Part shown: piece by piece, positions 1,419 to 40,816 of the stretch
How positions within the stretch are numbered: the first letter of the stretch is position 1
Layout: each line of letters begins with the position of its first letter
Source of the DNA: a virus
Lineage: Duplodnaviria > Heunggongvirae > Uroviricota > Caudoviricetes
Virus record (IMG/VR): IMGVR_UViG_2563366884_000001
Location: 1-40,816 of that record
Length of the DNA stretch: 40,816 nucleotides
Strand: one strand, 5' to 3'
Position numbers and translations under genes: made by a program
The notes under the pieces: generated by a model
Databases searched by the model: none
What the model was told of the DNA's origin: nothing
Seen by the model: the letters and a program-made list of their open reading frames with translations, nothing else

Positions 1419-2489
1419 TTATTTGATTTCAATTTTGTCCCACTCCCTGCCTCTGTCATCACGATATTGTGATGCCATGGTGTCCGACTTATGCCCGAGA
1501 AGATGTTGAGCAAACTTATCGCTTATCTGCTTCTCATAGAGTCTTGCAGACAAACTGCGCAACTCGTGAAAGGTAGGCGGATCCCCTTCGAAGGAAAGAC
1601 CTGATGCTTTTCGTGCGCGCATAAAATACCTTGATACTGTGCCGGATGAAAGCGGTTCACGACGAGTAGATGCAATTATGGTTTCTCCACCAAGAATCTC
1701 TTTGCATTTATCAAGTGTTTCCTTCATTGATATCCCGAGAGTATCAACATGCAATGTTGTAGGGATGGCAATTTTTACACCTGTTTTGCTTTGCTCGACA
1801 TAAAGATATCCATCTACGATATCAGACCACTTCATTTCGCATAAATCACCAACTCGCTGCCCGGTAACAACAGCCAGTTCCATTGCAAGTCTGAGCCAAC
1901 ATGGTGATGATTCTGCTGCTTGATAAATTTTCAGGTATTCGTCAGCCGTAAGTCTTGATCTCCTTACCTCTGATTTTGCTGCGCGAGTGGCAGCGACCGG
2001 GTTTGTTGTTATATGGCCTTCAGCTATTGCCTCTCGGAATGCATCACTCAGTGTTGATCTGATTAACTTGGCTGACGCCGCCTTGCCCTCGTCTATGTAT
2101 CCATTGAGCATTGCCGCAATTTCTTTTGTGGTGATGTCTTCAAGTGGAGCATCAGGCAGACCCCTCCTTATTGCTTTAATTTTGCTCATGTAATTTATGA
2201 GAGTCTTCTGCTTGATTCCTCTGCTGGCGAGGATTTTTTCGTAGCGATCAAGCCATGAATGTAACGTAACAGAATTATCACTGTTGATTCTCGCTGTCAG
2301 AGGCTTGTGTTTGTGTCCTGAAAATAACTCAATGTTGGCCTGTATTGCTTCAGTGATTGCTATCCTCCTGTCTCGGCCTAATCCAAACTCTTTACCCGTC
2401 CTTGGGTCCCTGTAGCAGTAATATCCATTGTTTCTTATATAAAGGTTAGGGGGTAAATCCCGGCGCTCATGACTTCGCCTTCTTCCCAT
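1419..2489 (-). CDS. int: Integrase, lambda Int-type tyrosine recombinase (356 aa)
   Basis: Translation begins MGRRRSHERRDLPPNLYIRNNGYYCYRDPRTGKEFGLGRD, the lambda Int N-terminus; same length as lambda Int; adjacent to attL. Confidence 0.95.
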   Translation of the reverse strand: MGRRRSHERRDLPPNLYIRNNGYYCYRDPRTGKEFGLGRDRRIAITEAIQANIELFSGHKHKPLTARINSDNSVTLHSWLDRYEKILASRGIKQKTLINYMSKIKAIRRGLPDAPLEDITTKEIAAMLNGYIDEGKAASAKLIRSTLSDAFREAIAEGHITTNPVAATRAAKSEVRRSRLTADEYLKIYQAAESSPCWLRLAMELAVVTGQRVGDLCEMKWSDIVDGYLYVEQSKTGVKIAIPTTLHVDTLGISMKETLDKCKEILGGETIIASTRREPLSSGTVSRYFMRARKASGLSFEGDPPTFHELRSLSARLYEKQISDKFAQHLLGHKSDTMASQYRDDRGREWDKIEIK

Positions 2490-3522: not shown

Positions 3523-4380
3523 TCAAAGTGGAGGTTCTGGTAGAGGCATCCAGTGTGACGGTTTCCACGACGCACCAGGAATTATCCAACCATCATTAGC
3601 GTCAGGATGCTCCGGGATGTAAGTCGCCCATTTCATTCGCCAGTCACCTTTCCTGTCAAACTCCTTGGCAACAAGAACGGCTGTTTTGGTATCCGGCATT
3701 CGCTCACTACAGCTTATCCACCCCCCCCCCGGAGTTACCGGAGAGTTGCCTGCCAGTCTACGCAAAACAGCCTTAACAGCCTCAATACGGTCATCATCGT
3801 AACTTTCCGCCGTATCTATGCGGTCGAGCATGATGATTGCGTTATCAATATCAGGATTGCCGGTCCACTCATTACCGCGATTGGATTCGGCAGCCTGGTT
3901 GCCGCGTACTGGTTGATTGTCGGCTTTACCCAGTCTGTCGTCGCTGCATGAATGCCCTTCCAGCCAGGCCAATGCTTGTCGCATGAAATACGCAATATGT
4001 TTGCCGTGGTAATCGTCTTCATCGATGTGAAAAGCGATACTACGAATGTATTCAATTGCGTTTTCAATGGCCTCTAACGCTATCGGCGCTGGCGGAGTGG
4101 TGTATAGTTTTCGACATTTGTATATCCAACCGGCATGGTCAGGCGTGTCTGTAAAACGCAAATCGTCTTCGTAGCACTCACGACTACGTTCTTTCCATTC
4201 CGTCCACGGAACACCGCTATTCCAGGTGGGGCGAGTGCAGGACTGATACAGAACAGGCTCTGCTTCCAGCGATGCCAGTGCGATTTCATAAGCACGGCGC
4301 TCAATATCGTCTCGCACGTCCAGGCTGCCGATTCGCTCTTTGATTTCTTTAATCAGTTCTTTGTCGGTAAAAGTGCTCAT
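3523..4380 (-). CDS. Phage protein with C-terminal DUF551-like domain (285 aa); contains a G10 tract
   Basis: AAGGAGAG SD before Met at 4380; C-terminus GGGWISCSERMPDTKTAVLVAKEFDRKGDW resembles DUF551; 10-nt homopolymer at 3721..3730 encodes the GGG. Confidence 0.55.
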   Translation of the reverse strand: MSTFTDKELIKEIKERIGSLDVRDDIERRAYEIALASLEAEPVLYQSCTRPTWNSGVPWTEWKERSRECYEDDLRFTDTPDHAGWIYKCRKLYTTPPAPIALEAIENAIEYIRSIAFHIDEDDYHGKHIAYFMRQALAWLEGHSCSDDRLGKADNQPVRGNQAAESNRGNEWTGNPDIDNAIIMLDRIDTAESYDDDRIEAVKAVLRRLAGNSPVTPGGGWISCSERMPDTKTAVLVAKEFDRKGDWRMKWATYIPEHPDANDGWIIPGASWKPSHWMPLPEPPL

Positions 4381-4381
4381 C

Positions 4382-4807
4382 TCACTCTCCTTTGATGCGA
4401 ATGCCAGCGGCGCGTGGCACATTAACTTCCACGATGCGCACAGTTGGTTTGTACATCTCAATCGCTGTCAGCCAGTCAGCGCCAGTCATGCGCTTTTCTG
4501 CATCGCCATTAGTCCACTTAACCGGTACACCAATAGCCTTCATCGCGATTTCTATTTCCCCGGCAATGGCGCTTTTTCCGCAACCAGTAAAACCAGAAAC
4601 AACGACAAGAACTTCGCCTTTGGCTGGTTTTATTTCCCGTGCTTCCAGTTCTGCAATACGCTTTTTGTCTGCTTCCCGTTCATCCAGTAGTGCCAGCACA
4701 ATCGATGGTGTTACCAGCTCATGGAAAAGGTCCGCGTCAAATCCCCAGTCGTCATGCATTGCCTGATCTGCCGCTTCACGCAGTGCCTGGTAATTAATTT
4801 CGCTCAC
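4382..4807 (-). CDS. Ea22-like protein (141 aa) with Walker-A-like motif GFTGCGKS
   Basis: N-terminus MSEINYQALREAADQAMHDDWGFDADLFHEL and C-terminus ...GIRIKGE resemble lambda Ea22 as I recall it; GTG start with GGAGG SD. Confidence 0.5.
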   Translation of the reverse strand: MSEINYQALREAADQAMHDDWGFDADLFHELVTPSIVLALLDEREADKKRIAELEAREIKPAKGEVLVVVSGFTGCGKSAIAGEIEIAMKAIGVPVKWTNGDAEKRMTGADWLTAIEMYKPTVRIVEVNVPRAAGIRIKGE

Positions 4808-8264: not shown

Positions 8265-8374
8265 AATAAGACCTCAACTCTTTTCCATCCGTCACGTAAT
8301 TTACTGGTGATTCGTTCAAGTAAAGATTCGGAAGGGCAGCCAGCAACAGGCCACCCTGCAATGGCATATTGCAT
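8249..8374 (-). CDS. cIII: CIII-like protein (FtsH inhibitor / CII stabiliser), 41 aa with divergent C-terminus
   Basis: MQYAIAGWPVAGCPSESLLERITSKLRDGWKR matches lambda CIII residues 1-32; AAGGAG SD upstream of this Met inside the longer annotated ORF. Confidence 0.8.
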   Translation of the reverse strand: MQYAIAGWPVAGCPSESLLERITSKLRDGWKRVEVLLCAMK

Positions 8375-8433
8375 GGTGTGCTCCTTATTTATACATAACG
8401 AAAAACGCCTCGAGTGAAGCGTTATTGGTATGC

Positions 8434-17313: not shown

Positions 17314-17362
17314 TTGACTTTTTGAATAAAGTTGGGTAAATTTGACCTAACGATGGATAAAT
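17314..17362 (+). promoter_or_regulatory. Late promoter PR' with qut-like element (-35 TTGACT 17314..17319, -10 TAAATT 17337..17342, downstream AACGAT)
   Basis: Matches the lambda PR'/qut arrangement (TTGACT-17 nt-TAAATT-TGAC..AACGATGG) immediately downstream of Q. Confidence 0.7.
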
Positions 17363-17378
17363 GCACTCGTTAAATAAA

Positions 17379-17413
17379 GCCCTGAGTTAATAGCTCGGGG
17401 CTTTTTGCGTTTT
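17379..17413 (+). terminator. tR'-like rho-independent terminator about 60 nt downstream of PR'
   Basis: GCCCTGAG-N7-CTCGGGGC hairpin followed by TTTTTGCGTTTT. Confidence 0.55.
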
Positions 17414-17704
17414 AATCACGACCTTTCTGAAAGCACATCAAGCCAAATACCAGACAGACAAAAATAATCACCTTATCCGCTGTGGCTACGGTGCGGTGTG
17501 CTTTGCATAAAAGAAAACCAGCGCAATGGCTGGCTTCGTGAAAGCGGGTGGCAAGAGGTTGCGCTAACAACCTCCTGCCGTTTTGCCCGTGCATATCGGT
17601 CACGAACAAATCTGATTACTAAACACAGTAGCCTGGATTTGTTCTATCAGTAATCGACCTTATTCCTAATTAAATAGAGCAAATCCCCTTATTGGGGGTA
17701 AGAC

Positions 17705-18028
17705 ATGAAGATGCCAGAAAAACATGACCTGTTAGCCGCCATTCTCGCGGCAAAGGAACAAGGCATCGGGGCAATCCTTGCGTTTGCAATGGCGTACCTT
17801 CGCGGCAGATATAATGGCGGTGCGTTTACAAAAACAGTAATCGACGCAACGATGTGCGCCATCATCGCCTGGTTCATTCGTGACCTTCTCGACTTCGCCG
17901 GACTAAGTAGCAACCTCGCTTATATAACGAGCGTGTTCATCGGCTATATCGGTACTGACTCGATTGGTTCGCTTATCAAACGCTTCGCTGCTAAAAAAGC
18001 CGGAGTAGAAGATGGTGGAAATCAATAA
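17705..18028 (+). CDS. S: Holin S (lambda S107/S105 dual-start class I holin)
   Basis: [62 protein letters not shown]... matches lambda S. Confidence 0.9.
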
Positions 18029-18488
18029 TCAACGTAAGGCGTTCCTCGATATGCTGGCGTGGTCAGAGGGAACAGATAACGGACGTCAGAAAACCAGAAA
18101 TCATGGTTATGACGTCATTGTTGGCGGAGAGCTATTCACTGATTACTCAGATCACCCTCGCAAACTTGTCACGCTAAACCCCAAACTCAAATCAACAGCA
18201 GCCGGACGTTACCAGCTTCTTTCCCGTTGGTGGGATGCCTATCGTAAGCAGCTTGGCCTGAAAGACTTCTCTCCCAAAAGCCAGGACGCTGTTGCGCTGC
18301 AGCAGATTAAGGAACGTGGCGCTTTACCGATGATTGATCGCGGTGATATCCGTCAGGCAATCGACCGTTGCAGCAATATCTGGGCTTCACTGCCGGGGGC
18401 TGGTTACGGTCAGTTCGAGCATAAGGTTGACAGCCTGATTGCAAAATTCAAAGAAGCTGGCGGAACGGTCAGAGAGATTGAGGTATGA
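18012..18488 (+). CDS. R: Endolysin R (lytic transglycosylase), 158 aa
   Basis: [49 protein letters not shown]... matches lambda R. Confidence 0.9.
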
Positions 18489-18952
18489 GCAGAGTCACCG
18501 CGATTATCTCTGCTCTGGTTATCTGTATCATCGTCTGCCTGTCATGGGCTGTTAATCATTACCGTGATAACGCCATTACCTACAAAGAGCAGCGCGATAA
18601 AAAAGTCAGTGAGCTGAAGCTGGCGAACGCCACCATTACTGACATGCAACAGCGCCAGCGCGATGCTGATGCACTCGATGCTAAATACACGAAGGAGTTA
18701 GCTGATGCGAAAGCTGAAAATGATGCTCTTCGGCGCAAGCTTGATAATGGTGGCAGGGTGCTCGTCAAAGGAAAATGCCCTGTGCCATCCTCAGCCAAAA
18801 CCTCCAGCGCCTCCGGCATGGGCAATGATGCCACCGTCGAACTCTCTCCAGTTGCTGGACGAAACGTTCTCGATATCCGGGACGGAATTATCCGCGACCA
18901 AACAGCACTGAGAACGCTTCAGGAATACATCAGGACGCAATGCCTTCGATGA
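18485..18952 (+). CDS. Rz: Rz inner-membrane spanin (i-spanin)
   Basis: N-terminal TM helix followed by coiled-coil periplasmic domain; resembles lambda Rz; follows R. Confidence 0.85.
18705..18911 (+). CDS. Rz1: Rz1 outer-membrane lipoprotein spanin (o-spanin), embedded in the +1 frame of Rz
   Basis: Lipobox LIMVAGC and Pro-rich body ([11 protein letters not shown]) like lambda Rz1; lies entirely within Rz. Confidence 0.75.
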
Positions 18953-19298
18953 TAGCGATAATTTTACTCATCATCCTTCACATCTGGCTCTGTAGACAGG
19001 GTGGTGATCACTTCTGGAGTGAATCCAGATTAAACATCTCATTGCTGATGCTTGATATTGAGCATCTTGCGCGCGGTAAGGGGCTGCGTTGAGATAAGAG
19101 CCAGTCATTACAAATACCAGGATTTAGCCTCGCATTCGCGGGGCTTTTTTACATCTGCAGTAAACCGCGCATCGCAGCGCGTAACAATCCCGAGTCTTTC
19201 AGAAAGCTGAGCCTGAGAATTGCCGTATATGGTGGCGACCATCTCGGGGACGGCTTTTCTGTGCGAACAGGCTCATCTTTCTAAAAGGTAAAGACGCA

Positions 19299-19841
19299 AT
19301 GAACTACCCAACCGTTGTTAACGATATAGATTTCAGAGACCTAATTTTTGTAGCAAACAACGATCCGGTTACAGATTCTTTTATGGTGGCAAAAGCATTT
19401 GGAAAGCTGCCGAAGAACGTGGTTCGTGACATTGAACGAACCATAGAAGCTTGCCCTCCTGAGTTTGATACAAAGCTCAACTTTGAGCTTTGCTATAAAA
19501 ACAATGAGTTACAGAATGGTAAGCCGCAAAAATTCTACCGTCTCCGCAAGGATGGGTTGATGCTTTTGGTTATGTCCTACACCAAAAAAGAAGCAATGCG
19601 TATCAAAATTGCTTACATCAACGCATTCAACTGGATGTACGCCATGCTTCAGGTTGGTCATCGTCAATTTGAAGAAGAGAGAAATGCCGTAATGCTGGAG
19701 TACATGAAAGAGAAGGATGTTGCCAGCATGTCAGGTCGCCTGCTTAATCGCTGGGGAAAAATTAAGAAGCCTCAGCTAATGGCGAGAATTGAACGCCTTG
19801 AACAGCACGGGCAAACCGTAATCCCCGGACTCACTAATTAA
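19299..19841 (+). CDS. Rha-family phage regulatory protein (180 aa)
   Basis: N-terminal pattern …DSFMVAKAFGK…NVVRDIERTIE… and …YRLRKDGLMLLVMSYTKKEAMRIKIAYINAFNWM… fits the Rha (Phage_pRha) family. Confidence 0.6.
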   Translation: MNYPTVVNDIDFRDLIFVANNDPVTDSFMVAKAFGKLPKNVVRDIERTIEACPPEFDTKLNFELCYKNNELQNGKPQKFYRLRKDGLMLLVMSYTKKEAMRIKIAYINAFNWMYAMLQVGHRQFEEERNAVMLEYMKEKDVASMSGRLLNRWGKIKKPQLMARIERLEQHGQTVIPGLTN

Positions 19842-20056
19842 CAGCAGTACCACGAAACAACCCAAGCCAGTAAGTGGGGAAATAACACCGGCAGCCACTG
19901 AAAGATGAACCTCCTGCCTTATGGCAAAAAAGATTCTTTGTGGTGGCGGACTGATGGAAAGACATCGGTTATTGCAGAGACCATTCAATGAGTGGTCTCG
20001 ACAATGGCTTATACCCTACACGGGATAACTTAACTGATATCCCTTTTAACGGATAA

Positions 20057-20311
20057 ATGGAGCCAACAATGGCAGAGATTATTCCCATGACTGAAGAACA
20101 GAAATTCCAGCTAGAGATTTACAAACTGGTAATGAACCAGAACGCAGCCGCAGAAGAAGCATTTCAGTTCATTGGCACTGACGAGCTGAAGCTTGAGCTA
20201 TTCAAAATTCACTTCCAGTCAGGTGGCGCTAATTCAGATATCACGACCCGAACTATCGAAGCGGTGCGTAAATCGAAGGAAGCGTTAGATCTGTTCACTA
20301 CCGGAGCATAA
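20057..20311 (+). CDS. Hypothetical protein (84 aa; alternative start at 20069)
   Basis: ORF upstream of terS; GGAG lies 8 nt upstream of the second Met. Confidence 0.4.
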   Translation: MEPTMAEIIPMTEEQKFQLEIYKLVMNQNAAAEEAFQFIGTDELKLELFKIHFQSGGANSDITTRTIEAVRKSKEALDLFTTGA

Positions 20312-20390
20312 ACATGGCAACTCAAGGTTTCGACAACCCATCCAAATTCCGCGATGAATGGGATAAGCAAGCAGAAGGGAAATAATCAAT

Positions 20391-20816
20391 ATGGCGACTG
20401 AGAAAAAGAATGTCGGTCGCCCTTCGGATTACCTGCCGGAGGTGGCTGATGATATCTGTGCGCTGCTTGCCTCCGGGGAAAGTCTGGTTAAGGTTTGCAA
20501 GCGCCCCGGCATGCCAGCAAAGGCTACTGTATTTCGCTGGCTGTCAGAGCATGACGAATTTAGAGACAAGTACGCGAAGGCAACTGAGGCACGAGCTGAT
20601 TCTATTTTCGAAGAGATATTCGAAATTGCTGACACTGCGATTCCAGATGCTGCTGAGGTGGCAAAGGCAAGACTTCGCGTTGATACCCGCAAATGGGCGC
20701 TGGCCCGAATGAATCCCCGTAAGTATGGCGACAAGGTAACTAACGAGCTTGTCGGTAAGGACGGCGGCGCAATCCAGATTGAAACATCACCGATGAGCAC
20801 TCTATTCGGAAAATGA
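20391..20816 (+). CDS. Terminase small subunit (141 aa)
   Basis: Immediately upstream of and overlapping terL; N-terminal HTH-like region; typical size. Confidence 0.65.
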   Translation: MATEKKNVGRPSDYLPEVADDICALLASGESLVKVCKRPGMPAKATVFRWLSEHDEFRDKYAKATEARADSIFEEIFEIADTAIPDAAEVAKARLRVDTRKWALARMNPRKYGDKVTNELVGKDGGAIQIETSPMSTLFGK

Positions 20817-22225
20817 CCTCGATTAATCCTATCTTTGAACCGTTCATTGAGGCGCATCGCTACAAAGTCGCCAAAGGCGGTCGAGGTAGCGGTAAGTCAT
20901 GGGCAATTGCTAGGCTGCTTGTTGAAGCGGCGCGTCGGCAGCCTGTGCGCATACTTTGCGCTCGTGAGCTGCAAAACAGTATCAGCGATTCGGTAATTCG
21001 GTTGCTTGAAGACACCATAGAGCGGGAAGGGTATTCGGCTGAGTTTGAAATTCAGCGTTCAATGATTCGTCATCTAGGAACGAATGCTGAATTCATGTTC
21101 TACGGCATCAAAAACAACCCGACGAAGATTAAATCGCTCGAAGGTATTGATATCTGCTGGGTGGAAGAAGCGGAAGCGGTAACGAAGGAATCATGGGATA
21201 TCCTGATACCAACCATCCGCAAGCCGTTTTCCGAAATATGGGTGAGCTTTAACCCGAAGAACATACTCGACGATACCTATCAGCGATTCGTCGTAAATCC
21301 TCCCGATGATATTTGTCTGCTGACGGTGAACTACACCGACAACCCGCACTTTCCTGAAGTTCTCCGTCTGGAGATGGAAGAGTGCAAACGCAGAAATCCG
21401 ACACTGTATCGTCATATCTGGCTTGGTGAGCCAGTAAGCGCAAGTGATATGGCAATCATCAAACGTGAATGGCTTGAAGCCGCAACCGATGTGCACAAGA
21501 AACTCGGATGGAAAGCGAAAGGCGCTGTTGTTTCTGCACATGACCCGTCAGATACAGGGCCAGATGCTAAAGGTTACGCATCGCGTCACGGTTCGGTGGT
21601 TAAGCGCATTGCCGAAGGTCTGCTGATGGACATCAACGAGGGTGCTGACTGGGCTACTTCGCTGGCGATTGAAGACGGTGCTGACCATTACCTGTGGGAT
21701 GGTGATGGTGTTGGTGCCGGGCTACGCAGACAGACAACGGAAGCATTCTCCGGTAAGAAAATCACCGCCACGATGTTTAAGGGCAGCGAATCGCCATTCG
21801 ATGAAGATGCGCCTTATCAGGCCGGAGCATGGGCTGATGAAGTCGTACATGGCGACAACGTTCGCACTATTGGCGATGTATTCCGCAATAAGCGAGCGCA
21901 ATTCTATTACGCGCTGGCTGACAGGCTGTATCTGACATATCGGGCGGTTGTTCACGGTGAGTATGCAGACCCAGACGACATGCTGAGTTTCGACAAAGAA
22001 GCGATAGGCGAGAAGATGCTGGAGAAGCTGTTTGCAGAACTTACGCAGATTCAGCGCAAATTCAATAACAACGGGAAGCTGGAGCTTATGACTAAGGTCG
22101 AAATGAAGCAGAAGCTCGGTATTCCATCTCCTAACCTGGCTGATGCGCTGATGATGTGTATGCATTGCCCGGCATTGGTCCGCGAAGAAACAGAAATATA
22201 CGTTCCCTCATCCTCCGGTTGGTAA
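20813..22225 (+). CDS. Terminase large subunit (headful-type, 470 aa)
   Basis: Walker A KGGRGSGKS near the N-terminus, ATPase plus C-terminal nuclease domain organisation. Confidence 0.85.
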   Translation: MTSINPIFEPFIEAHRYKVAKGGRGSGKSWAIARLLVEAARRQPVRILCARELQNSISDSVIRLLEDTIEREGYSAEFEIQRSMIRHLGTNAEFMFYGIKNNPTKIKSLEGIDICWVEEAEAVTKESWDILIPTIRKPFSEIWVSFNPKNILDDTYQRFVVNPPDDICLLTVNYTDNPHFPEVLRLEMEECKRRNPTLYRHIWLGEPVSASDMAIIKREWLEAATDVHKKLGWKAKGAVVSAHDPSDTGPDAKGYASRHGSVVKRIAEGLLMDINEGADWATSLAIEDGADHYLWDGDGVGAGLRRQTTEAFSGKKITATMFKGSESPFDEDAPYQAGAWADEVVHGDNVRTIGDVFRNKRAQFYYALADRLYLTYRAVVHGEYADPDDMLSFDKEAIGEKMLEKLFAELTQIQRKFNNNGKLELMTKVEMKQKLGIPSPNLADALMMCMHCPALVREETEIYVPSSSGW

Positions 22226-39685: not shown

Positions 39686-40816
39686 ATGAAACGCGCATAT
39701 AAATACCGGTTTTACCCGACAACTGAGCAGGCTGAGCTTTTAGCTCAGACGTTTGGCTGTGTGCGCTTCGTCTACAATTCCATCCTTCGTTGGCGTACCG
39801 ATGCGTACTACGAGCGAAAAGAAAAGATCGGTTATCTACAGGCCAACGCTCGCCTTACGGCGCTCAAAAAAGAGCCTGAATACATATGGCTGAATGATGT
39901 TTCCTGCGTTCCCCTCCAGCAGTCGTTGCGCCACCAACAAGCCGCCTTTGCTAACTTCTTTGCCGGACGAGCTGCATATCCGGCTTTCAAAAGCAAACGG
40001 CACAAACAGGTGGCTGAGTTCACTGCCAGCGCGTTTAAACACCGTGACGGCGAGTTGTATATAGCAAAGAGCAAGTCGCCGCTGGATGTTCGCTGGAGTC
40101 GAGAATTACCATCTGCGCCGTCAACCGTTACCATTTCCAGAGATAGCGCTGGCAGGTACTTTGTTTCCTGCCTGTGTGAGTTTGAACCTGTATCAATGCC
40201 TGTTACCGCTAAAACGGTCGGCATTGATGTGGGCTTAAAAGATTTATTCGTCACCGATACCGGATTCAAAACCGACAATCCCCGCCACACCGCTAAATAT
40301 GCGAAGCGATTAACGCTGCTACAGCGACGTTTAAGCAGGAAGCAAAAAGGCTCAAGAAACCGAATTAAAGCCCGCTTAAAGGTCGCCCGACTCCACGCGA
40401 AAATCGCCGATTGCCGGATGGACAATCTGCACAAGTTGTCCCGCAAACTGATTAACGAAAACCAAGTTGTTTGCGTCGAATCCCTCAAGGTGAAAAACAT
40501 GATCCGCAACCCGAAGCTGTCTAAAGCAATAGCTGACGCAGGCTGGAGCGAACTTGTTCGCCAGCTCCAGTACAAAGGCAAATGGGCCGGGCGGTCAGTG
40601 GTCGCCATTGACCAGTATTTACCGTCCTCAAAATGCTGTAGTTGCTGCGGTTTCACCATGCAAAAAATGCCTCTTAATGTTCGTAAATGGCACTGCCCTG
40701 AATGCGGCGCAGACCATGATCGCGACATTAACGCGGCACGTAATATTAAAGCTGCCGGGCTGGCAGTGTTAGCCCACGGAGAGCCTGTAAACCCTGAATC
40801 GCAGCACGCGGCTTAG
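39686..40816 (+). CDS. tnpB: TnpB (IS200/IS605 OrfB-family RNA-guided nuclease-like protein), 376 aa, no tnpA partner in window
   Basis: Typical OrfB N-terminus (MKRAYKYRFYPT…), RuvC-like acidic residues and C-terminal zinc finger (CxxC…CxxC); stop codon is the last three bases of the window. Confidence 0.8.
   Translation: MKRAYKYRFYPTTEQAELLAQTFGCVRFVYNSILRWRTDAYYERKEKIGYLQANARLTALKKEPEYIWLNDVSCVPLQQSLRHQQAAFANFFAGRAAYPAFKSKRHKQVAEFTASAFKHRDGELYIAKSKSPLDVRWSRELPSAPSTVTISRDSAGRYFVSCLCEFEPVSMPVTAKTVGIDVGLKDLFVTDTGFKTDNPRHTAKYAKRLTLLQRRLSRKQKGSRNRIKARLKVARLHAKIADCRMDNLHKLSRKLINENQVVCVESLKVKNMIRNPKLSKAIADAGWSELVRQLQYKGKWAGRSVVAIDQYLPSSKCCSCCGFTMQKMPLNVRKWHCPECGADHDRDINAARNIKAAGLAVLAHGEPVNPESQHAA

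Follow-up and report, generated by a model that had tools for sequence, protein, structure and literature searches.

The DNA between the lysis genes and the terminase genes of this phage raises the question of whether it is an insertion and of what its small genes do. The interval (positions 18953-20390, ~1.4 kb) is bounded by Rz and the Sf6-type small terminase gene of a P22-like prophage; the window is the whole 40,816-nt stretch of DNA analysed here. The preliminary description of the sequence had taken lambda as its reference and read the interval as 1.4 kb of inserted DNA. Its listed features were all recovered, at the same positions or within a few bases of them. The comparison with lambda did not hold. 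The Rz-bor-cos-Nu1 region of lambda is the same lysis/packaging junction of a Q-antiterminated late operon, but it contains the oppositely oriented bor and cos, neither of which is present in the interval, and the window phage is of the P22/Sf6 type, with headful packaging from a pac site. The phage's own lineage, P22, Sf6, HK620 and CUS-3, carries the interval throughout, which makes lambda the wrong baseline and leaves nothing that counts as inserted.

We consider it likely that the interval is the standard, dispensable accessory region between the lysis and packaging genes of P22-like (Lederbergvirus) phages, and that it forms a row of independent cassettes. Taken as a whole, the region is known already, and the version in the window is near-identical to that of deposited, annotated phages. 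It is real but ordinary, with the exception of a tiny 23-aa gene.

Layout of the interval and its relatives

The interval contains, in order, a gene-65-like ORF, a terminator hairpin, Rha, DUF2560 and a 23-aa ORF, followed by the small terminase gene (Table 1). All interval genes are co-oriented with the late operon, and the gaps around DUF2560 measure 2-5 nt. CUS-3, Sf101 and vB_EcoP-720R6 are 98.4-98.5% identical to window 18953-20318 at the nucleotide level. They share the order from the gene-65-like ORF through the hairpin and Rha to DUF2560, but differ after DUF2560, where another small terminase or a gene-68-type ORF is found. The counterpart of Rz is annotated as an Rz-like spanin in Sf101, epsilon34 and CUS-3.

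The same gene order is annotated in Sf6 (genes 65-68), HK620 (hkbK-N) and P22. The P22 genes rha (orf201), orf25, orf80 and orf59c lie at the corresponding place, between gene 15/Rz1 and gene 3; the hairpin stem after Rz is shared, and orf80 encodes a DUF2560 protein 98.8% identical to that of the window. P22 differs in ~600 bp of extra DNA before orf80 and in carrying orf59c in place of the 23-aa ORF. HK620 and Sf6 share the flanks, linkers and DUF2560 of the window, with HK620 matching positions 18400-19303 and 19832-20309. An Rfam scan at gathering thresholds detected no RNA family in the interval; its sole match was the lambda CIII thermoregulator at 8329-8387.

Table 1. Features of the interval and of the genes that bound it (window coordinates).
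Feature	Position	Strand	Evidence or remark
Rz (i-spanin)	18485..18952	+	PF03245, 104 bits; last lysis gene, left boundary
50-aa ORF, Sf6 gene 65 homologue (protein coding doubtful)	18940..19092	+	phrog_11822, E = 3.9e-38
Intrinsic-terminator-like hairpin	19126..19150	+	8-bp G+C-rich stem, loop ATTC, then TTTTT
Leader of slot-A gene	19152..19298	+	long inverted repeat, 19196-19215 with 19268-19287
Rha, 180 aa	19299..19841	+	Pfam, NCBIfam and PHROG matches
Conserved non-coding linker (leader of gene 66 in Sf6)	19842..19966	+	
Empty site for Sf6 gene 66 cassette (PF13876 Phage_gp49_66, ~413 bp)	19966..19968	.	
10-bp hairpin, GAGACCATTC / GAGTGGTCTC, no U-tract	19977..19999	+	in DUF2560 leader
DUF2560 gene (P22 orf80, Sf6 gene 67, HK620 hkbM), 80 aa	20069..20311	+	
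23-aa microprotein gene (MATQGFDNPSKFRDEWDKQAEGK)	20314..20385	+	GGAG 7 nt upstream
Small terminase subunit, Sf6 type	20391..20816	+	PF20901, 150.6 bits; phrog_1482; right boundary

The gene-65-like ORF was absent from the preliminary description. It is found in 42 of 74 related loci and is annotated in Sf6, epsilon34 and Sf101, and also by PGAP. Its variable sites are spread over the three codon positions (9/10/13), with 10 synonymous and 24 non-synonymous changes, which is no coding signature; its pairwise diversity is 0.022, compared with 0.067 at the third positions of DUF2560. Judged from these substitutions, it is doubtful that the ORF is protein coding. Two further ORFs in region 18953-19298, both on the minus strand, a 44-aa ORF (19108-19242) that appears HTH-like by eye and an adjoining 45-aa ORF, have no Pfam or PHROG match and no coding signature, and were rejected.

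Exchange of Rha and neighbouring cassettes

The composition of the interval was surveyed in 74 related viral contigs that carry a near-identical DUF2560 gene. The distance from Rz to DUF2560 spans 299-1908 bp in these loci, and the smallest state consists of 299 bp only. The slot is occupied by Rha in 31 loci, KilA-N in 13, GIY-YIG in 4, Tad2-like genes in 3, and other genes or nothing in the remaining 23; Rha is thus missing from 43. The alternative occupants include KilA-N+ORF11CD3, GIY-YIG/T5orf172, Tad2-like and Acb2/Tad1-like genes, and 14 of 20 possible slot combinations were seen. Such varied occupants beside a near-identical DUF2560 indicate, by comparison of sequences, that Rha is exchangeable cargo. 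The notion of an accessory slot in the preliminary description therefore stands for Rha, which is swapped among the 74 loci, and fails for DUF2560, which is a conserved late gene.

Exchange breakpoints were located at 19114, 19127, 19303, 19819-19841, 19966/19968 and 20309-20318, with the exchanges at gene boundaries, and the comparison yields a clean map of cassette boundaries. The pattern suggests that the cassettes, which sit inside the late operon, would pass from phage to phage through recombination at gene boundaries and in conserved non-coding linkers. Three slots may be distinguished in the window: slot A holds Rha, slot B is empty through the precise absence of gene 66, and slot C is occupied by the 23-aa microgene. 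Slot A contains KilA-N+ORF11CD3 (hkbK) and hkbL in HK620 and is empty in Sf6, slot B contains gene 66 (PF13876) in Sf6, and slot C encodes an unrelated 59-63-aa hkbN/gp68 protein in HK620 and Sf6.

The empty site for gene 66, which the preliminary description did not include, is defined by two alignments with the Sf6 locus L006: window 19841-19966 aligns with 1959-2084, and 19968-20309 with 2498-2842. The same pattern was obtained with Huey, phiKp_30 and 611R6. Gene 66 occurs in 22 of the 74 loci. A relationship of gene 66 to the Tad2-like protein was considered and rejected, as BLASTP detected no similarity.

Rha is also found in other surroundings. In Klebsiella prophages, an 85% identical Rha lies between the tail chaperone/tube genes and the tape-measure gene. 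The Stx-like phage POCJ13 carries Rha between Rz and the terminase, and Providencia prophages have it between the lysis genes and DUF2560.

The assignment of the protein to the Rha family was borne out by matches above cut-off to PF09669 (77.1 bits, cut-off 29.9) and TIGR02681 (84.8 bits, cut-off 45.95), together with PF10549 ORF11CD3 (90 bits). An N-terminal pRha domain (residues 25-113), described in the literature as a DNA-binding winged helix-turn-helix, is followed by a C-terminal ORF11CD3 domain (residues 125-176), predicted to be a long helical hairpin. The variable sites of the gene are distributed 20/12/66 over the codon positions. The AlphaFold2 model, of adequate confidence (pLDDT 80.6), has helices at residues 97-142 and 146-170. 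A Foldseek search of the PDB with this model returned no match at E <= 0.001, the best hits being weak winged-helix regulators (probability <=0.3), and a sequence search of the PDB with Rha and DUF2560 returned nothing. The combination of pRha with a helical-hairpin ORF11CD3 suggests that Rha would bind DNA as an oligomer.

Rha of P22 likewise consists of pRha and ORF11CD3 and is 55% identical to the window protein overall. The two proteins are nearly identical over the C-terminal third but have diverged in the N-terminal DNA-binding domain, and the 23-residue N-terminal extension of the P22 protein is absent from the window. DNA homology to P22 begins at 19670, the domain boundary, with 91% identity onward; the gene carries an intragenic recombination joint at this boundary. 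The ORF11CD3 domain is joined to pRha here, to KilA-N in HK620 hkbK and to P22_AR_N in POCJ13 gp42. Domain-swapping proteins of this kind (Bro-N, KilA-N, Rha, Ant, ORF11CD3) form the Bro network (PMC10111431), and Rha has both an N-terminal domain of the network and an exchangeable C-terminal domain. In the literature, ORF11CD3 was mentioned only as a member of this network.

By position, orientation and homology to P22 rha, the gene belongs with the late-operon genes. PMC4936722 describes rha of P22 and phi80 as a late-operon gene, the product of which harms phage growth in a host that lacks IHF, and cites Mozola & Friedman 1985 and Henthorn & Friedman 1995 for the genetics. Rha may be a late non-structural regulator or antirepressor-type factor aimed at host, resident prophage or satellite DNA, rather than a factor in virion assembly.

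These properties also bear on a second reading, in which the interval would be an island of counter-defence or conflict between elements: Rha and KilA-N proteins would act as antirepressor-type effectors on prophages or satellites, and DUF2560 or the microprotein might inhibit host factors. The slot holds Tad2-like genes (PF11195) in Huey and three IMG/VR loci, and Acb2/Tad1-like genes (PF24729) in a Serratia locus (L092) and an E. coli locus (L039). Rha itself matches PHROG families annotated as antirepressors, ORF11CD3 is also part of a P22_AR_N 'Ant' protein of POCJ13, and a Klebsiella homologue of Rha (L104) adjoins an arc-mnt-ant immunity region. This evidence is guilt by association, however. 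Only the alternative occupants match Tad2 or Acb2/Tad1; Rha, DUF2560, the gene-65 ORF and the 23-aa peptide match no PADLOC model and no anti-defence family in Pfam, PHROGs or NCBIfam. DUF2560 is conserved and not variable, unlike typical counter-defence genes, and late expression is unusual, though not unknown, among such genes. As an account of the whole interval this reading is possible but rather unlikely. The uncharacterised occupants (among them Rha/KilA-N+ORF11CD3, gene 66 and DUF551) are nevertheless reasonable candidates for a screen of phage-host conflict genes, because the slot of relatives carries recognised counter-defence genes, the Tad2-like and Acb2/Tad1-like genes. The region is unmentioned in the accessory-gene screens of Silas et al.

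DUF2560 and the 23-aa microgene

The gene next to the 23-aa ORF had been described as encoding an 84-aa protein, for which a homology search was proposed. That search identified DUF2560 (PF10834, 147.5 bits, cut-off 25), with 72 of 72 profile positions covered. The gene is real, but the start requires correction. Most homologues have ACG where the window has ATG at 20057, and the next ATG, at 20069, is preceded by a GGAG Shine-Dalgarno sequence and gives the 80 aa called by PGAP and RefSeq. The true gene is for these reasons most likely 20069-20311. Its variable sites fall 17/9/56 on the codon positions, with 72 synonymous and 23 non-synonymous changes, a pattern of strong purifying selection that marks it as a conserved late gene and not as cargo. 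The DUF2560 family comprises 88 clusters, all from Enterobacterales. DUF2560 matches 171 phage records, and the P22-type portal of the window matches 225, ~140 of them enteric by organism name. From the separate totals of these two lists we estimate that DUF2560 is present in nearly all enteric P22-like phages, and a knockout would be worthwhile. AlphaFold2 predicts a four-helix bundle (pLDDT 81), for which Foldseek retrieved no PDB fold at E <= 0.001, and the literature search on DUF2560 returned irrelevant mentions only.

The start of the 23-aa ORF is separated by 2 nt from the DUF2560 stop codon, and its end by 5 nt from the small-terminase start. The preliminary description had proposed it as a possible peptide with a good Shine-Dalgarno sequence; both are present, and the comparison shows that it is not a chance ORF. 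Homologues, which were sought by tblastn and by a degenerate DNA pattern, have the same length and a Shine-Dalgarno sequence in HK544, Emek, Pm34 and Brookers, and the ES2 form has 27 aa. Among 80 IMG/VR matches examined, 27 distinct peptides of 23-29 aa were found, with the consensus x(1-7)-[QE]G[FS][DN]NPx[KQ]FR[DE]E[WL]D[KRS]xxxx. With a looser pattern, applied to all collected loci with the window and phage records included, 118 of 119 matches keep the stop codon in register, and similarity becomes near-random straight after the stop. The ORF is uncalled by PGAP, and 212 of 5426 complete E. coli genomes contain it; among deposited phages, segment 20312-20390 is common only to E212, EC.P3 and APC_JM3.2.

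The 23-aa ORF thus appears, on the basis of its conservation, to be a microprotein that annotation pipelines have missed, and the one new item of the interval. We favour, with some reservation, the view that it is a genuinely translated member of a widespread, unannotated family of lambdoid late operons, which behaves as a mobile minimal cassette in three positions. These would be behind the spanin genes (with a GTGA start/stop overlap in one group), behind the late-leader terminator, and directly upstream of the small terminase gene. If this is true, the peptide could be a small late effector with a host or phage protein as its binding partner, or a sequence-specific nascent-peptide regulator of the downstream gene; the conserved peptide sequence would point to one role or the other. 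In four of five family members a sub-threshold match to DUF2740 (PF10872) was observed, at 13-15 bits (cut-off 27) over profile positions 19-32 of 43, and a distant relation is possible. No mention of DUF2740 was found in the literature. An origin of the ORF as a remnant of hkbN/gp68/orf59c was rejected, as the sequences are unrelated.

The proximity of these genes to the small terminase suggests a further reading, in which DUF2560, the 23-aa peptide and/or Rha would help the small terminase, perhaps to recognise the pac site, and the interval would be part of the packaging module rather than accessory cargo; the preliminary description had named such a requirement in packaging as the finding that would overturn its own account. 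In P22-like, Providencia (Mu-F type) and other phages, DUF2560 does closely precede the terminase genes; it shows tight coupling to the gene that follows and strong purifying selection, and all 12 loci that could be scored pair the 23-aa ORF with an Sf6-type small terminase. The toxicity of rha, linked in PMC4936722 to IHF, a DNA-bending protein, may be a further pointer in this direction. However, near-identical DUF2560 genes stand beside at least three unrelated types of small terminase, with no co-variation with pac specificity, and in epsilon34, Serratia and Shimwellia prophages one or two genes stand between DUF2560 and the small terminase. More distant phages with a P22-type portal (APSE, Vibrio, Ralstonia) were recovered in the portal search and none of them in the DUF2560 search. 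The predicted four-helix bundle does not indicate a DNA-binding fold. Homologues of the 23-aa ORF occur well away from the terminase: in Proteus phages they follow Rz directly, and in ES2-like phages they precede the holin gene. Rha is missing from 43 of the 74 loci, and other phages have it in tail operons. A role in packaging is accordingly without support here, and we regard it as improbable.

Probable late transcription and conserved non-coding elements

Both PR' (17314-17342) and tR' (17376-17404) were located in the window. Downstream of them, a consensus scan, which misses weak or activator-dependent promoters, detected no sigma-70-like site on the + strand from 17343 to 21000. Because no promoter-like site precedes the genes, Q-antiterminated late transcription is the most likely source of their expression. 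Antitermination by lambda Q and P22 gp23 is established; from it we infer that Q-modified polymerase from PR' would read through tR' and the hairpin at 19126-19150, and that the genes would be transcribed only then. DUF2560 and the 23-aa peptide would be real late genes under this scheme.

The lack of a sigma-70-like promoter, the presence of a terminator only upstream of Rha and the tight co-oriented packing argue that the interval is not a self-contained moron. Morons, as defined in HK97/HK022, are extra genes between genes that are adjacent in relatives, with presence/absence variation and a slightly different base composition. It is very improbable that Rha, perhaps with its neighbours, is a classical moron, an autonomous unit of lysogenic conversion expressed from the repressed prophage to the advantage of the host, for instance in superinfection exclusion: Rha does vary in presence between the same flanking genes, has a G+C content of 0.41-0.45 compared with ~0.50 in the flanks, and some alternative slot-B cassettes bring their own terminators, but the consensus scan, a weak test, gave it no promoter, no terminator follows it, it is co-oriented with the late operon in every context seen, it matches no PADLOC defence model, and the rha phenotype described in PMC4936722 is that of a late-operon gene.

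The hairpin with a T-tract that had been placed at ~19124..19150, before Rha, was located and is conserved. It has the structure of a rho-independent terminator, with a G+C-rich stem in which 6 of 8 pairs are G-C, a short loop (stem and loop 19126-19145) and a U-tract directly after it (19146-19150), and it folds at -14.6 kcal/mol (z = -2.56). Of 95 related loci, 46 retain the hairpin; the annotations of epsilon34, HK544 and Emek list it as a rho-independent terminator, and its loop differs in P22. By analogy, it would halt unmodified polymerase only, and would shield Rha and the virion genes in the lysogen against stray transcription.

The leader of the slot-A gene is common to the window, HK620 and epsilon34 through base 19303, beyond which the genes differ. 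Its inverted repeat I1 (20 nt, 90% complementary) pairs with the AAGG Shine-Dalgarno sequence of Rha (19285-19288), and the leader folds with z = -2.54. A consensus structure is kept in 18 sequences, with a covariation term of ~0. The leader hairpin is plausible on these predictions and would damp translation of Rha. In P22, a small-RNA study identified discrete RNAs just upstream of rha (P22F, with its 3' end 6 nt before rha) and across its 3' end (P22G) (PMC13397905). The leader is positionally equivalent to P22F, and the rha 3' end with the following linker corresponds approximately to P22G (window ~19783-19986, matched by eye). The two RNAs could reflect a local start site or processing instead of simple read-through.

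The linker at 19842-19966 is 95-97% identical in Sf6, Huey, phiKp_30 and 611R6, regardless of the neighbouring genes. Over 87 loci its pairwise diversity is 0.025, compared with 0.067 for the third positions of DUF2560 in those loci; the non-coding linkers are ~3-fold less diverse than the neighbouring synonymous sites. In terms of sequence diversity, this low value is left unexplained by a view of the interval as pure passenger DNA.

The intergenic DNA at 19836-20056 has a folding z of -4.29. Within it, a covarying hairpin at 19977-19999, absent from the preliminary description, has 99.4% of cells paired over 16 distinct sequences, which represent only about three haplotypes. Compensatory changes occur at four pairs, and the observed score was reached by 0 of 500 shuffles. 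When the 3' partners were shifted out of register as a control, 33-51% of cells paired.

Late-region setting and exchange of the Rz-terminase interval

The window comprises an E. coli prophage of the P22-like (Lederbergvirus) type, and the features of its late region are listed in the table below. The E. coli CUWW11 chromosome carries the same 5 kb at 97.8% identity, and at least 80% of that 5 kb is present in 53 complete E. coli genomes. Outside the late region, Rfam detects the lambda CIII thermoregulator element, which indicates that the prophage has a lambda-type cIII leader.

Features of the prophage late region, its Rz-terminase interval and the cIII leader
Feature	Coordinates	Remarks
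Lambda CIII thermoregulator element (RF01804)	8329-8387	minus strand; 88.5 bits
PR'-like promoter	17314-17342	late region, downstream of Q
tR'-like terminator	17376-17404	late region, after PR'-like promoter
Holin	17705-18028	
Endolysin	18012-18488	
Rz	18485-18952	
Gene-65 ORF	18940-19092	50 aa; Sf6 gene 65 homologue
Hairpin with T-tract	19126-19150	8-bp stem at 19126-19145, then TTTTT
Rha leader inverted repeat	within 19196-19287	20 nt; 3' arm over Shine-Dalgarno sequence
Rha	19299-19841	
DUF2560 leader hairpin	19977-19999	10 bp
DUF2560	20069-20311	most likely extent
23-aa ORF (microgene)	20314-20385	GGAG 7 nt before start codon
Small terminase, Sf6-type	20391-20816	right after the interval; then large terminase and P22-type portal

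For the interval between Rz and the small terminase gene (18953-20390), megablast against deposited phages gave 238 records. Five of them cover most of the query, and CUS-3, Sf101 and vB_EcoP-720R6 match at 98.4-98.5%; the remaining records keep the flanks and have the middle replaced. The region is already known and is nearly identical in sequence to deposited phages. The sole item beyond existing annotation is a conserved family of 23-aa ORFs, followed in importance by the gathering of recognised counter-defence genes in the same slot of relatives. The architecture is shared with P22 (annotated rha, orf25, orf80 and orf59c), Sf6 (genes 65-68), HK620 (hkbK, L, M and N) and epsilon34 (gp67, a terminator, a GIY-YIG gene and gp69).

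Pairwise blastn located the cassette joints. Sf6 homology spans 18917-19114, is interrupted, and picks up again at 19841, and phiKp_30 homology covers 19127-19831, which comprises the hairpin, the leader and Rha. In HK620 and epsilon34, homology extends up to 19303, 5 bases inside the Rha coding sequence, and resumes at 19832 and 19819, respectively, so that the swap is confined to the Rha coding sequence. Gene 66 (PF13876) sits exactly between window positions 19966 and 19968 in Sf6, Huey, phiKp_30 and 611R6. The window thus has a clean empty site for this cassette of the N4 gp49/Sf6 gp66 family, which consists of a ribosome-binding site and coding sequence alone. Past 20309-20318, the sequence varies with terminase type. 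Between orf25 and orf80, P22 carries about 600 bp without an annotated gene; this stretch holds a 104-aa ORF on the opposite strand (P22 record 40446-40760; 1647-1961, minus strand, in our extracted locus L008). In vB_EcoP-611R6 (locus L010, 2567-3007), the gene at the small-terminase position is annotated as an HNH homing endonuclease and matches the CUS-3 small terminase in size and place; the label, which made the slot appear to hold a homing endonuclease, is probably a mis-annotation.

Eighty IMG/VR loci encoding an essentially identical DUF2560 protein were compared, 74 of which also contain Rz. The Rz-to-DUF2560 distance in these 74 ranges from 299 bp (a gene-65-like ORF alone) to 1908 bp. 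The Rha position is occupied by Rha (31 loci), KilA-N (13), GIY-YIG (4), Tad2-like (3) and other small ORFs or nothing (23); the gene-65 ORF occurs in 42 of the 74 and gene 66 in 22, and 14 of the 20 possible slot combinations were seen. This variability marks Rha as cargo that is exchanged at a genuine hot spot. Some alternative occupants belong to recognised counter-defence families. An Acb2/Tad1-hairpin protein (PF24729) is found in an E. coli locus (L039 3432-3716) and a Serratia P22-like prophage (L092 4371-4652), and a Tad2-like gene (PF11195) at L007 1422-1922; both families are known as sponges for immune signalling molecules. A DUF551 protein is another occupant. The Huey record places an "anti-CRISPR" label on both its Tad2-like gene and its gene-66 homologue.

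Rha and DUF2560

The Rha assignment of the preliminary description holds, with scores far over the curated cut-offs for PF09669 and TIGR02681 and an ORF11CD3 domain at the C-terminus. In the structural model (pLDDT 80.6), the N-terminal domain is alpha/beta, and the ORF11CD3 part after it forms a long hairpin of two helices (97-142 and 146-170); a search of the PDB gave no significant match, the best being weak ones to winged-helix regulators. Variable sites among related loci fall 20/12/66 on codon positions 1/2/3, and 78 changes are synonymous against 34 non-synonymous; these codon-position statistics show purifying selection on Rha. P22 Rha is 55% identical to the window protein overall, its C-terminal third being nearly identical. 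DNA homology to P22 rha starts at 19670 (residue ~124), at the pRha/ORF11CD3 boundary, with 91% identity downstream, whereas upstream of ~19670 the proteins are only weakly similar; this domain boundary is the site of an intragenic recombination joint. ORF11CD3 is elsewhere partnered with KilA-N (HK620 hkbK) and P22_AR_N (POCJ13 gp42), combinations that are instances of the "Bro network" domain shuffling that PMC10111431 describes.

Rha homologues with 54-88% identity are common in Enterobacterales prophages, always in late operons and co-oriented. In the Stx-like phage POCJ13, which has window 19138-20057 in common, Rha sits between Rz and terminase, whereas Providencia prophages have it between the lysis genes and DUF2560. 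Klebsiella and Serratia prophages carry it between tail chaperone/tube genes and the tape-measure gene, once adjoining an arc-mnt-ant region. [quoted passage not shown]

The protein previously described as 84 aa is present and belongs to DUF2560 (PF10834, 147.5 bits), but both PGAP and RefSeq give 80 aa. In the 44 distinct upstream sequences that 97 loci provide, position 20057, ATG in the window, is usually ACG, and the ATG at 20069 is invariant with GGAG ahead of it; the shorter gene is therefore the most likely one. With variable sites of 17/9/56 by codon position (72 synonymous, 23 non-synonymous in related loci), DUF2560 is constrained as Rha is. Matches were found in 171 phage records, including a ~43%-identical subfamily (ST104, L, SPN9CC) and the HK97-like remnants described below, and the family is confined to Enterobacterales. 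The window's P22-type portal matches 225 records, of which organism names assign ~140 to enteric hosts; the Vibrio, APSE and Ralstonia phages among the 225 are absent from the DUF2560 search. We estimate from these counts, comparing the two match lists by totals alone, that nearly all enteric P22-like phages carry DUF2560.

DUF2560 precedes four small-terminase families (Sf6_terminase, CUS-3 type, HK620 type and GP3_package/Terminase_2 types), sometimes separated from the small terminase by 1-2 extra genes. AlphaFold2 predicts a four-helix bundle (pLDDT 81), for which no PDB fold match was found. DUF2560 is a conserved late gene without co-variation with packaging specificity, and evidence for a packaging role of the interval genes was looked for and not found. 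The proposal of an accessory slot stands for Rha and the slot, exchanged in the 74 loci, but not for DUF2560. HK97-like siphophages (HK97, HK544, HK75, HK446, mEp) retain the first 28 DUF2560 codons alone, at 93-96% identity, directly upstream of an HNH endonuclease and the terminase region; this remnant is a mosaic joint within the gene.

Transcription and conserved non-coding elements

A consensus scan of the plus strand from PR' to base 21000 gave no sigma-70-like site. The genes share one orientation and are separated by short gaps, of 2 nt from DUF2560 to the microgene and 5 nt from there to the small terminase gene. The accessory reading is imprecise on autonomy, because the cargo here belongs to the late operon and does not form a self-contained moron. 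The hairpin and T-tract noted upstream of Rha were confirmed; the element is kept in 46 of 95 loci, and P22 has the same stem with a different loop. Q-type antiterminators let modified polymerase pass terminators. Q-modified polymerase from PR' would read through this hairpin, and unmodified polymerase would stop there.

The Rha leader is 147 nt long. Its inverted-repeat structure is kept in 18 sequences, some of them from KilA-N and tail-operon Rha genes, with almost no covariation; in other phages, the same leader lies ahead of KilA-N, GIY-YIG and tail-operon Rha genes. The leader corresponds positionally to P22F, an 89-nt RNA with its 3' end 6 nt before rha in a 2026 study of P22 small RNAs; P22G from the same study is a 204-nt RNA over the rha 3' end and downstream linker (PMC13397905). 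By eye and unaligned, the published P22G sequence resembles window ~19783-19986. Both RNAs may be stable structured pieces of the late transcript, or local-initiation products.

In the same loci, pairwise diversity is 0.025 in the linker (19842-19966) and 0.022 in the gene-65 region, compared with 0.067 at DUF2560 third codon positions. The gene-65 ORF, called by PGAP, has one-third the diversity of neighbouring synonymous sites. Since its variable sites (9/10/13) lack codon-position bias, conservation may act at the nucleotide level, and the ORF is possibly no protein gene but a conserved non-coding element. Compared with shuffles, the intergenic stretch 19836-20056 folds far better (z = -4.29). 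The DUF2560 leader hairpin, which lies within this stretch, shows compensatory changes at four pairs in three haplotypes and 99.4% pairing, compared with 33-51% of cells when the 3' partners are shifted out of register; none of 500 shuffles reaches the observed score. This hairpin may be a cassette boundary or RNA processing element. Sf6 has a related hairpin, with GATAATG behind it, after gene 65. The conserved stretches match features that the CUS-3 and Sf6 records label "boundary sequence" and could be recombination linkers, RNA processing/stability elements, or both.

A family of 23- to 29-aa late-operon ORFs

The 23-aa ORF had been proposed with a good Shine-Dalgarno sequence, as is the case. 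Full-length tblastn matches of the same size occur in HK544 and Emek (both 61%) and in the Proteus phages Pm34 and Brookers (57-72%), and Cronobacter phage ES2 has a 27-aa form (75% identity); every homologue has a Shine-Dalgarno sequence, and nearly all lack annotation. The core motif, written as a degenerate DNA pattern, matched 116 IMG/VR stretches; 80 of these were read and yielded 27 distinct peptides of 23, 27, 28 or 29 aa. When a looser pattern was applied to all loci compared, including the window and phage records, the stop codon lay 19 codons past the motif glycine in 118 of 119 matches. In the tail, which the pattern leaves unconstrained, pairwise difference is 0.31-0.43 and jumps to 0.64-0.69 right after the stop, indicating that homology ends at the ORF boundary. 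There is thus good comparative evidence, drawn from sequence, for a real microprotein gene.

The gene occurs behind Rz/Rz1 (one group having a GTGA start/stop overlap), at the gene-66 site, just before the small terminase gene, or between the late leader terminator and the holin gene. Of 5426 complete E. coli genomes, 212 carry the microgene segment; PGAP does not call the gene. NCBIfam, PHROG and PADLOC gave no family match; a sub-threshold DUF2740 match is the same in four of five family members. Many lambdoid phages, with Escherichia, Salmonella, Proteus, Providencia, Cronobacter and Enterobacter hosts, carry the family in their late operons; its core is QGFDNPxKFREEWDK. Members also lie in further compared loci, at L106 ~1502-1573, at 1501-1572 in L107, L108 and L110, and in L111-L190. 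In ES2-like phages (L135 ~4320-4400), a hairpin with the tR' core sequence AAAGCCCTGAGTTAATAGCTCGGGGCTTT lies directly before the 27-aa form.
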